Of a stretch of DNA of 64,000 nucleotides, positions 33,378-33,907 are shown piece by piece. The notes below the pieces were generated by a model, which did no database searches, had not been told where the DNA came from, and saw nothing but the letters and a program-made list of their open reading frames with translations. Numbering within the stretch: the first letter of the stretch is position 1; every line of letters starts with the position of its first letter. Position numbers and translations under genes: made by a program. The DNA is from Candidatus Peregrinibacteria bacterium (GTDB taxonomy: Bacteria; Patescibacteriota; Gracilibacteria; Peribacterales; Peribacteraceae), in the NCBI GenBank assembly GCA_043814035.1, contig JBDRKJ010000007.1, positions 128,100 to 192,099 of the forward strand, read 5' to 3'.

Positions 33378-33406
33378 TTGTCTGACCATGGTAAGCGTGC
33401 TATACT
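33378..33406 (+). promoter_or_regulatory. Sigma70-like promoter facing into a gene-free region (TTGTCT-N17-TATACT)
   Basis: The -10 TATACT is identical to the -10 of the purE and ftsE promoters in this window. No ATG follows at leaderless distance. Confidence 0.35.
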
Positions 33407-33412
33407 GGCTAG

Positions 33413-33907
33413 ATTTGTTCTTTGACATCCCTGTCCATCATTTAACGCAGGGAGCAGTGAGAAGTGACACCGCGATTACACGGCTTCGGTGGCTTTATCG
33501 CTCTCGTCGTCCGTGTATCACGGATCCTCCTGAAGATCTTCTTCAGGCCCCGCACCTTTCTGTGCTTGCACAAAAGGGTGCGGGGTCAGTCACTTCTCTC
33601 TCCTCCCTGTTCTTCTCTGCACTCTGTGCAGAACACGGTTGACCGCCGTGCCACGCTGGGGCCTTAGGGTTCCGGCAAACACAAACATTCCACGCTCCCG
33701 GGGAACTATCGGGAGGCCGATGCCCGAGCTTCGGGCTACCACCAACACAAACACTGGTGCGCGCCCATTCTAGCGCGTACAGGACAGGGGGCCAGAGCCG
33801 GTCACTCTGGGACCGATCTCAAGCACATTACACTCGTGCATGAGGTCACGGGGCACTCGCCTCTTGCGTTCCACAGGGAACATGAGGGGCGGGTGCCCCA
33901 CTTTTAT
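33413..33907 (+). ncRNA. Candidate novel structured ncRNA (~0.5 kb), class unknown
   Basis: A 560-bp gap with no credible ORF in an otherwise tightly packed window, with a promoter-like element upstream and a terminator-like element at the 3' end. Hairpins:
- 33529-33547 (8 bp).
- 33548-33585 (~16 bp).
- 33695-33715.
- 33722-33736.
- 33850-33899 (12 bp outer plus inner stem).

A CA-rich single-stranded motif AACACAAACA occurs twice (33678-33687, 33744-33753). Confidence 0.3.
33850..33907 (+). terminator. Intrinsic terminator candidate, plus-strand orientation
   Basis: GGGGCACTCGCC...GGCGGGTGCCCC (12 bp including one G-U pair; inner GTTCC-ACAG-GGAAC) followed by ACTTTTAT. The T-tract is on the plus strand only. 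Confidence 0.45.

Follow-up and report, generated by a model that had tools for sequence, protein, structure and literature searches.

A Candidate Large Structured RNA Gene Divergent from gmk in Peregrinibacteria

Introduction

What occupies the longest gene-free stretch of a 64,000-nucleotide (nt) piece of a Candidatus Peregrinibacteria genome (GCA_043814035.1, contig JBDRKJ010000007.1, positions 128,100 to 192,099 of the forward strand; hereafter the window)? An earlier, sequence-only reading placed in this stretch, between the start of the guanylate kinase gene gmk and the end of a convergent open reading frame (ORF), a novel structured RNA gene of about 0.5 kb with its own promoter-like and terminator-like signals. 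Rfam searches, transcript data, coding analysis and covariation all support that proposal. Positions 33413-33906 of the plus strand almost certainly hold a genuine structured noncoding RNA (ncRNA) gene, the RNA is in all likelihood not a diverged member of a known family, and it very probably founds a new class of large bacterial RNA that is specific to Peregrinibacteria, as the first member to be described. The explanation as a whole, a stand-alone gene for a previously undescribed large ncRNA with the role suggested below, is considered probable.

To our knowledge, very few large, intricately folded bacterial RNAs have been found. Ribosomal RNA (rRNA), RNase P RNA, transfer-messenger RNA (tmRNA), signal recognition particle (SRP) RNA and the group I and II introns are the large RNAs of core biochemistry, while the orphans OLE, ROOL, GOLLD and raiA are among the most interesting unsolved questions of RNA biology. 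The element described here is larger and more widespread than is visible from the window alone, having the same layout and neighbour across Peregrinibacteria as well as tertiary contacts.

Locus and Predicted Transcript

The gene-free stretch (33361-33919; 559 nt) is, as first read, the longest of the window without an ORF of at least 100 amino acids (aa) in six frames. It is bordered on one side by the start of gmk (Pfam Guanylate_kin, E = 4.5e-28) and on the other by the stop of a 112-aa ORF (33920-34258, minus strand), for which a Pfam search gave no match. A DNA contig of a related strain (public run X1) jumps from 33908 to 34280, with 71 different letters instead; the 112-aa ORF is missing there and, thus, is either strain-specific or not a real gene.

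The site TTGTCT-N17-TATACT (33378-33406), with a TG before the -10 box, is the sole sigma-70-like promoter in 32500-35000, and its -10 region is ~50 nt from the gmk start codon. The same promoter had been picked out in the earlier reading; it is very strong and recurs at this position across the family. At the far end, a hairpin (33850-33899) is followed by ACTTTTAT, and the scan places a terminator-like site on the plus strand; by inspection of the sequence, there is no T-run after the hairpin when read on the minus strand, which agrees with the claim of a terminator in the plus orientation only. Boxes at proper spacing and a GC-rich hairpin with a U-tract, all conserved in homologues, are the signs of a sigma-70 transcription unit, its ends being predicted from these signals. 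The features that define the unit are:

32725-33360, minus strand: gmk (guanylate kinase; Pfam), the adjacent and divergent neighbour of the RNA gene
33378-33383, plus strand: -35 box TTGTCT (promoter scan)
33398-33406, plus strand: extended -10 box TGcTATACT (promoter scan)
33413-33906, plus strand: predicted primary transcript of ~490 nt, with the start placed 7 nt past the -10 box and the end at the U-tract

Fold of the RNA

The plus strand folds to a minimum free energy (MFE) of -261 kcal/mol, compared with -183 +/- 6 kcal/mol in dinucleotide shuffles (z = -12.2); the minus strand of the same region has a fold z of -9.5. The RNA forms a body closed by helix H1, with a long helix (H2), several hairpins and two A/C-rich single strands, after which comes a 3' domain (H10-H12) that is tied to the body by a covarying kissing contact between the H4 and H10 loops. 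The four hairpins noticed at first reading (33529-33547, 33548-33585, 33695-33715 and 33722-33736) are recovered both in the MFE fold and in the consensus fold of seven homologues. The elements, all on the plus strand, are:

33417-33424, plus strand: conserved 5' motif GUUCUUUG (family consensus GWUCYUUrA), one of the few primary-sequence motifs common to the distant group
33427-33436, plus strand: H1 5' strand UCCCUGUCC of the body-closing helix, pairing with 33782-33790
33447-33610, plus strand: H2 domain, a 20-bp purine/pyrimidine helix (33447-33468 with 33589-33610)
33470-33523, 33529-33547 and 33548-33585, plus strand: inner hairpins H2a, H2b and H2c of H2 (MFE and consensus folds)
33617-33631, plus strand: hairpin H3, in the window group only (consensus fold)
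33634-33650, plus strand: hairpin H4 with a covarying stem; its loop UUGACCG (33639-33645) is a kissing partner
33658-33673, plus strand: hairpin H5 (consensus fold)
33677-33687, plus strand: A/C-rich single-stranded tract 1, AAACACAAACA (motif search and alignment)
33694-33717, plus strand: hairpin H6, GCUCCCGG...UCGGGAGGC (MFE and consensus folds), whose GCUC...GAGGC ends are common to the distant group
33722-33736, plus strand: hairpin H7 (MFE and consensus folds), at the position of a pseudoknot in the distant group
33740-33759, plus strand: H8, a CACC/GGUG stem with A/C tract 2, AACACAAACACU (33744-33755), as its loop (consensus fold)
33760-33777, plus strand: hairpin H9 (consensus fold)
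33782-33790, plus strand: H1 3' strand GGACAGGGG (consensus fold and per-sequence comparison)
33792-33810, plus strand: hairpin H10, whose loop CCGGUCA (33798-33804) is the second kissing partner by complementarity
33815-33847, plus strand: hairpin H11 with outer helix GAUCUC/GAGGUC, three pairs of which have compensatory changes
33850-33907, plus strand: H12, a 22-bp terminal hairpin GGGGCAC...GUGCCCC followed by ACUUUUAU, terminator-like (MFE fold, scan and consensus fold)

The two exact copies of AACACAAACA (33678-33687 and 33744-33753) lie in tract 1 and the H8 loop, and the earlier statement that this motif sits twice in unpaired segments holds. When one mismatch is allowed, the window has nine matches to AACACAAACA compared with 2.6 expected, and no shuffle reached nine. 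A third copy of the A/C motif is also noted, in which 13 nt (CAACACAAACACU) identical to the H8 loop are found at 10248-10260 (plus strand) in the intergenic region 10063-10540, the second-longest ORF-free stretch of the window; this region is not unusually structured (fold z = -1.1). A paralogous copy of the RNA elsewhere in the window was considered and rejected, as this 13-nt match is the only one and is at chance level (E = 0.43).

Conservation and Covariation in Close Relatives

The closest relatives of the window gmk are all from metagenome-assembled genomes (MAGs) of Peregrinibacteria/Peribacteria, with 66-91% identity of the Gmk protein in genomes L001-L007 (L numbers denote related loci and X numbers public runs). 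By blastn and nhmmer, the RNA region is found directly upstream of gmk and on the opposite strand in L001, L002, L003, L004, L006 and L007, at 78-98% nucleotide identity; the L005 locus is cut by a contig end. The -10 box is invariant in the seven close homologues (7/7), the -35 box is nearly so (TTGTAT in L007), the terminal hairpin is nearly invariant, and the alignments include long invariant blocks. Insertions are hairpin-sized (24-66 nt) and confined to a few junctions or hairpin tips: 24 nt in H3 of L004, a hairpin of ~40 nt after H6 in L003 and L007, 40 nt in the H7 loop of L007, and an insert of ~65 nt (GCCCGCCCGAACGAUCC...GGAUCGGGCGG) between H4 and H5, just upstream of H5, in L001 and L004, with a further ~30 nt in L001.

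The RNAalifold consensus of this window group has 147 pairs, 14 with compensatory double changes. With the six kissing pairs added (153 pairs), 97.5% of cells are paired and double changes occur in 15 pairs, compared with 0-4 in controls with the 3' partners displaced by 1-3 columns; on four of five measures, the observed values were matched by none of 500 shuffles. H2a and H2c together account for five pairs with compensatory changes, and the H4 stem changes from CACGG/CCGUG to GCGG/CCGC in L003. Together with the distant group discussed below, these changes bear out the helices of the first reading. The homologous regions are not protein-like: variable columns are spread evenly over codon positions (42/50/45; p = 0.70), among the 2-15 indels of each homologue just 0-3 have a length divisible by three, and the longest open stretch differs in frame and length between homologues.

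A Distant AT-Rich Group

The motif AACACAAACA led to L028, where a 590-nt AT-rich gene-free region upstream of gmk has the same layout, with a TTGAAA-N17-TGcTATAAT promoter, A/C-rich tracts and a terminal hairpin (GGGGCA...UGCCCC-UUAUUU). An nhmmer search with the L028 region found it at 19 of the more distant gmk loci, in each case on the strand that does not carry gmk. A metagenome collection scanned with an RNA-internal pattern (CTCCYTACTTTTCGATG-N12-20-CCACC) gave 27 loci, all 27 of which hold the RNA (a few being cut by contig ends) next to a divergent gmk (27/27). Across the distant loci, gmk is adjacent and divergent in 47/47, with the -10 region of the RNA 41-313 nt from the start of the gmk match, and the RNA is present in every gmk locus with enough sequence. 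L011 is the sole locus in which gmk is not the immediate neighbour; the RNA is kept there with a DUF5671 gene (2025-2405, plus strand) in between. About 60 natural sequences were collected in this way, the homologues being about 420-610 nt long; searches of viral contigs did not find the RNA. The convergent downstream neighbour is ssb in ~28 distant loci (among L009-L052) and not in the window group. In L028, the stop codon of ssb (4804-5304, plus strand) is only a few bases from the terminal hairpin of the RNA and, thus, the hairpin may end both transcripts.

The promoter and the fold are conserved in the distant group. An extended -10 box of the TGnTATAAT type is found in 37/42 distinct sequences and a -35 box with at least four of six matches in 36/42, nearly always TTGAAA-like at exactly 17 nt; most of the exceptions are due to selection of a wrong -10 box by the script. 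RNAalifold on 19 distant sequences gives 68 pairs, 34 with compensatory changes. For counting, 71 pairs were selected by hand from the helices, the kissing loop and pseudoknot stem 2; pairing holds in 94.8% of their cells, and 37 pairs have double changes (139 cells), compared with 12-17 pairs (18-31 cells) after sliding. On all five measures, the observed value exceeded that of every one of 500 shuffles. Double changes occur in 14/22 pairs of the distant H2 stem, and 12/20 pairs of the H12 equivalent covary. The H11 outer helix has the counterpart CCGCUCU/AGAGCG, and the H12 internal loop is conserved (CCACCUCUGA/UCAUGUGAAAUU in the distant group) while its tip is variable. The distant A/C tracts are AAAAACAAAAACAAACUCAACAAAAA, at the place of tract 1, and AAACAAAAAUAAAAAA, with (AAN)n repeats.

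H1 is misaligned by MAFFT in the distant group and was instead compared sequence by sequence. The distant H1 (CCCUACC:GGUAGGG) corresponds to CCCUGUCC:GGACAGGG of the window, and its distal part covaries in the versions GUUUCCCUG:UAGGGAAAC, AUUUCCC:GGGAAAU, GACUCCC:GGGAGUC, CCCACC:GGUGGG and GCUUCCCUA:UAGGGAGGC. The strands of H1 and H2 resemble each other in both groups; thus, an alternative pairing between H1 and H2 is possible. In L024, the H2 3' strand, and not the H1 5' strand, carries the change that matches one in the H1 3' strand, and in a clade of five loci (L030, L037, L046, L047 and L041) the H1 3' strand is retained with no 5' partner that can be recognised.

Tertiary Contacts

The H4 loop (33639-33645, UUGACCG; seven bases) is complementary to that of H10 (33798-33804, CCGGUCA), which lies ~155 nt further 3', outside H1. 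Changes in one loop go with changes in the other, with 13 complementary versions across the family and a contact of at least 5 bp in 27/34 distinct sequences; loops were taken from explicit stems, and the failures mostly reflect extraction of the wrong hairpin by the script. In the window group, the versions are UGACCG:CGGUCA (window and L006), UGACCA:UGGUCA (L004) and a 5-bp UGACC:GGUCA elsewhere. Others include CCAAC:GUUGG, CCAACA:UGUUGG, CCAACUA:UAGUUGG, CCAACC:GGUUGG and CCCAAC(U):(A)GUUGGG, as well as CAGUCA:UGACUG, CGACU(A):(U)AGUCG and CGGCUA:UAGUCG.

A second contact is found in the distant group, where the loop (GGUG) of a hairpin GAACGG...CCGUUC pairs with CACC past an A-rich UAAAAnAAnA to form an H-type pseudoknot. 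Stem 2 covaries (GGUG:CACC, GGUGAU:AUCACC, GGUGUU:AACACC, GAUGU:ACAUC, GGUGGAU:AUCCAUC and UUGGAAC:GUUCCAA), as judged by per-sequence complementarity since differences in loop length shift the register of the 35-segment MAFFT alignment. The pseudoknot with its A-rich third loop is present in most distant lineages and missing altogether from L025.

RNA Strand and Expression

G.U pairs outnumber A.C mismatches by 70 to 17 in the window group and by 86 to 18 in the distant group; thus, the structure belongs to the plus strand, opposite gmk. The promoter and U-tract agree with this assignment.

The RNA sequence is found in public runs that include many groundwater and lake metatranscriptomes. In six of these (X2, X6, X7, X8, X9 and X12), the contigs that fall within 33000-34300 are only inside the RNA gene (33457-33554 and 33601-33851), with a word depth of 7-101. 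DNA runs X1 and X4, by comparison, have even coverage of the RNA gene and the gmk flank, at a depth of 2-6. A single 299-nt metatranscriptome contig of the distant member L053 is likewise only inside the RNA gene. A transcript confined to the element is, thus, detected, and contig depth in environmental transcriptomes puts the RNA far above its neighbouring mRNAs in abundance. Loose contig ends in X8 and X12 (window 33601-33671) match the insertion of the L001/L004 type; thus, the insertion variants are transcribed too.

Probable Homology of the Two Groups and Weight of the Evidence

The GC-rich window group and the AT-rich distant group are very likely homologous, since they share the same neighbour and orientation, promoter type, element order and motifs. 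From the 5' end, the common order is GWUCYUUrA, the H1 5' strand, a purine/pyrimidine H2 with a variable tip, the H4 kissing loop followed by CCAC, and H5. An A/C tract, H6 with GCUC...GAGGC ends, a second A/C tract and the H1 3' strand make up the middle part. The 3' part is formed by the H10 kissing loop, a helix around a variable hairpin (H11) and the GGGGCA...UGCCCC hairpin with its U-tract.

Several points weigh against the main explanation, a previously undescribed large ncRNA with its own gene. Homology of the two groups is statistically not demonstrable: nhmmer profiles of the window group and of the distant loci gave no match to one another in either direction. A covariance model (R1) built from the distant 3' domain finds all other distant loci searched, most with E values between 1e-13 and 1e-22, and the values of four loci that are divergent or truncated range from 9e-5 to 0.2; its best match in window positions 30000-38000 is the correct hairpin, H12, at a weak 8.7 bits (E = 0.3), and that in L003 is marginal (E = 0.015). 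The window group is without the distant form of the pseudoknot and has instead the H7 hairpin and the H8 CACC/GGUG hairpin. The public runs are direction-less contigs from which the direction and ends of the transcript are inferred, and contig depth is a poor measure of expression that indicates presence and relative abundance, not ends. RNase P RNAs of the candidate phyla radiation (CPR) are, moreover, reported to be diverged and to be missed at default Rfam thresholds (bioRxiv 10.1101/2020.03.05.979740), a point considered further below.

Search for Known RNA Families

At gathering thresholds, an Rfam 15 cmscan of the whole window returned two tRNAs only, and at E <= 10 the region 33250-34050 gave only chance-level matches to microRNA, small RNA and long noncoding RNA models. 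The search was extended to the window and 29 related loci at the gathering score and to three members (the window, L028 and the minimal L015) at E <= 10, where scores below roughly 10 bits are not listed. No credible family was found; the matches were to tRNAs, one group I intron and, at chance level, microRNA, viroid, telomerase and CrcZ models. The element is, thus, as free of a known Rfam assignment as the sequence-only reading had proposed. OLE, ROOL, GOLLD, HEARO and raiA gave no match in these scans at either the gathering score or E <= 10. A riboswitch or cis leader for a downstream gene was rejected: the gene that follows the RNA points towards it (the 112-aa ORF of the window, or ssb among the distant loci), and gmk is on the other strand. 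The resemblance of short pieces to the 3' end of 16S rRNA was judged compatible with chance. Literature on Peregrinibacteria, Patescibacteria and CPR was searched and no description of such an RNA was found.

Sub-threshold matches of L015 (234-480, minus strand) are to ciliate telomerase RNA at 18-21 bits (E of 0.5-2, not significant) and to CrcZ at 15 bits, and are probably driven by a C/A-rich tract beside the pseudoknot. A closing helix that encloses an A/C tract and a pseudoknot whose loop is A-rich is a layout reminiscent of telomerase RNA cores.

Alternative Explanations

The A/C-rich tracts raise the possibility of a sponge or regulatory RNA of the CrcZ type, in which (AAN)n tracts would titrate Hfq, S1 or a C-rich-binding factor and the fold would present the tracts and protect the RNA. 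CrcZ, the Hfq/Crc-sequestering RNA of Pseudomonas (RF01675, ~400 nt), is similarly abundant with repeated unpaired A-rich motifs of the AAnAAnAA type, and its model is the only one of a bacterial RNA to recur, below threshold, on the RNA-sense strand across members. These matches fall exactly on the A/C tracts, which are unpaired yet conserved in sequence (AACACAAACA twice in the window; AAAAACAAAAACAAACUCAACAAAAA and AAACAAAAAUAAAAAA in the distant group); the high abundance of the RNA and the CAACACAAACACU copy in another intergenic region of the window would also fit. The matches of distant members, however, score 8-15 bits compared with a gathering score of 95, there are two tracts where CrcZ carries six, a partner protein is not identified, and the third motif copy does not exceed chance, as noted above. 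We know of no conserved tertiary architecture in CrcZ, unlike the RNA described here, in which the phylum-wide conservation of a kissing loop and pseudoknot exceeds the needs of a sponge. This explanation is, thus, considered improbable.

A drastically diverged housekeeping RNA is less probable still and is regarded as unlikely, with RNase P RNA, the main rival to a new class, the most plausible candidate and tmRNA, SRP RNA and 6S RNA less so; the RNA would then do that known job in Peregrinibacteria. Similarly to bacterial RNase P RNA, the Peregrinibacteria RNA is abundant, of like size and universal in its lineage, with a pseudoknot and long-range tertiary contacts. The RNase P reading deserves care because CPR forms are diverged and need lowered thresholds, having escaped default Rfam settings; the reported forms, however, are still found with RF00010 and keep recognisable features (bioRxiv 10.1101/2020.03.05.979740). 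By contrast, neither RF00010 nor RF00011 matched at the gathering score (window and 29 loci) or at E <= 10 (window, L028 and L015), and no tmRNA, SRP or 6S model did so at E <= 10 in these three members. The conserved regions that define RNase P RNA are missing: CR-I (GGAAAGUCC) is absent from the window RNA sequence and CR-V (ACAGAAnnCGGCUUA) was not found as its P4 partner. A heptamer directly before the H1 3' strand (ACAGGAC in the window and AAAGAAC in the distant group) does resemble CR-V, which is ACAGAAC in the M1 RNA of Escherichia coli. The resemblance was set aside as it is at chance level, with several matches of this quality (9/11) expected by a rough estimate. A crossing like that of P2 and P4 would arise in some distant members if the 5' motif paired with the segment immediately before the H1 3' strand, but this pairing is absent from the window group and inconsistent elsewhere. 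Consensus folds also reveal no P1 pairing of the RNA ends, and instead leave the 5' leader and an extra 3' domain of ~115-220 nt (H10-H12) outside the closing helix.

The remaining housekeeping RNAs are likewise poor matches. The Peregrinibacteria RNA shares with tmRNA its abundance, a similar size and, in the distant group, an H-type pseudoknot whose third loop is A-rich and which precedes an A-rich single strand, a layout likened to PK1 of tmRNA. Unlike tmRNA, it has no tRNA-like domain, T-arm or CCA context, and its ends are unpaired; ARAGORN on the window and Rfam at E <= 10 (window, L028 and L015) found none, and no tag frame is conserved, as inserts of 39 and 40 nt fall in the sole candidate frame. 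SRP RNA (RF00169 and relatives) gave no match at E <= 10, and H12, the one long hairpin that is conserved, has a variable tip, while SRP domain IV has conserved loops and a GNRA tetraloop. The absence of tmRNA and SRP RNA features had been noted from the letters alone and is upheld by these searches. 6S RNA (RF00013 and relatives) was rejected with no match at E <= 10; it is a rod of ~180 nt with a large central bubble, whereas the RNA described here is multibranched and of 420-610 nt.

The third alternative, a cis element of gmk, is very unlikely. Two forms are conceivable: a minus-strand riboswitch or long structured 5' leader, and an antisense transcript, divergent from gmk, that serves only to control gmk transcription. 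Either would account for the absolute linkage to gmk at 41-313 nt in the 47 distant loci and ~50 nt in the window. The strand evidence is opposed to it: G.U pairs exceed A.C mismatches about 4-5 to 1 on the strand opposite gmk, which also carries the conserved promoter and U-tract. In addition, the contigs of the RNA runs end before gmk, L011 keeps the RNA despite the DUF5671 gene between the two, and 500 nt with tertiary contacts are far beyond what promoter interference would need.

A missed or decayed protein gene, or a mobile or phage-derived element, can be dismissed with near certainty, since the one overlapping ORF (84 aa, 33388-33642, plus strand) has no Pfam match, a coding gene is ruled out by the codon-position and indel pattern, and a phage or mobile origin is ruled out by the absence from the viral contigs searched and the fixed position beside gmk.

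Comparison with Orphan Large RNAs

Like OLE (~600 nt, Bacillota), the Peregrinibacteria RNA is large, highly expressed and restricted to a lineage, with many conserved unpaired nucleotides. Unlike OLE, it is from CPR and not Bacillota, no match in sequence or structure was found, and no oap-like partner genes were identified in this analysis; the gene neighbourhood of OLE differs from that of the Peregrinibacteria RNA. OLE is described as large, ornate and highly expressed, working in a ribonucleoprotein complex with its biochemical function open (PMC12054373, PMC12265935).

The Peregrinibacteria RNA shares with ROOL and GOLLD the character of a large orphan RNA with a complex fold, and oligomerisation is one possible role for the H4:H10 contact. 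ROOL and GOLLD are often associated with phages or prophages and patchy in distribution. By contrast, the RNA described here is chromosomal, occupies the same locus in all related genomes examined and is absent from viral contigs, with no match to the ROOL or GOLLD models of Rfam. Homo-oligomers of ROOL and GOLLD are reported from cryo-electron microscopy (PMC12286853).

Proposed Role and Significance

The new stand-alone ncRNA is suggested to act in trans as the core of a housekeeping ribonucleoprotein or of an RNA-only assembly, a mode of action proposed with low confidence. The likeliest sites for protein or nucleic-acid partners would be the two A/C-rich tracts and the H12 internal loop; the tracts are the best platform candidates because they are conserved in sequence though unpaired and, in the distant group, consist of (AAN)n repeats. 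Either locking of the monomer fold or joining of copies into oligomers may be the task of the kissing loop. A control region used in common, or a functional connection to guanine nucleotides, may lie behind the strict coupling to gmk. A bolder version, in which the RNA is a new catalytic or self-assembling class, universal and probably essential in Peregrinibacteria, that replaces a protein or canonical RNA in its job or forms kissing-linked oligomers like those of ROOL and GOLLD, is speculative and somewhat unlikely. In that version, the duplicated purine and pyrimidine strands of H1 and H2 could allow switching between two conformations, and the coupling to gmk could point to the supply of guanine nucleotides.

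Three features set the RNA apart as new. It belongs to the CPR, whose tiny genomes are thought to retain only necessities; all related genomes examined carry it, at a single fixed locus; and in metatranscriptomes from groundwater and lakes it ranks among the more abundant transcripts of these uncultured cells. The gene can serve as a marker of the lineage, and the RNA as a test case for functions of RNA that are peculiar to episymbiotic bacteria. With about 60 sequences, defined helices, a covarying kissing loop and a pseudoknot in hand, work on structure, pull-down and activity is directly feasible.

Other Observations at the Loci

The window also encodes tRNA-Ala(GGC) (35126-35201, minus strand) and tRNA-Arg(GCG) (35413-35490, minus strand), and the loci of the window group have tRNA pairs of near-identical score 1-2 kb from the RNA. 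Three MAG contigs labelled Nitrospirota/Nitrospirae (L017, L018 and L027) carry a gmk-RNA-ssb locus of the Peregrinibacteria type and are probably mis-binned or mislabelled. In a Peribacteria MAG (L029), a group I intron (609-854, minus strand; Rfam 92.5 bits) is located a few kb from the RNA locus.

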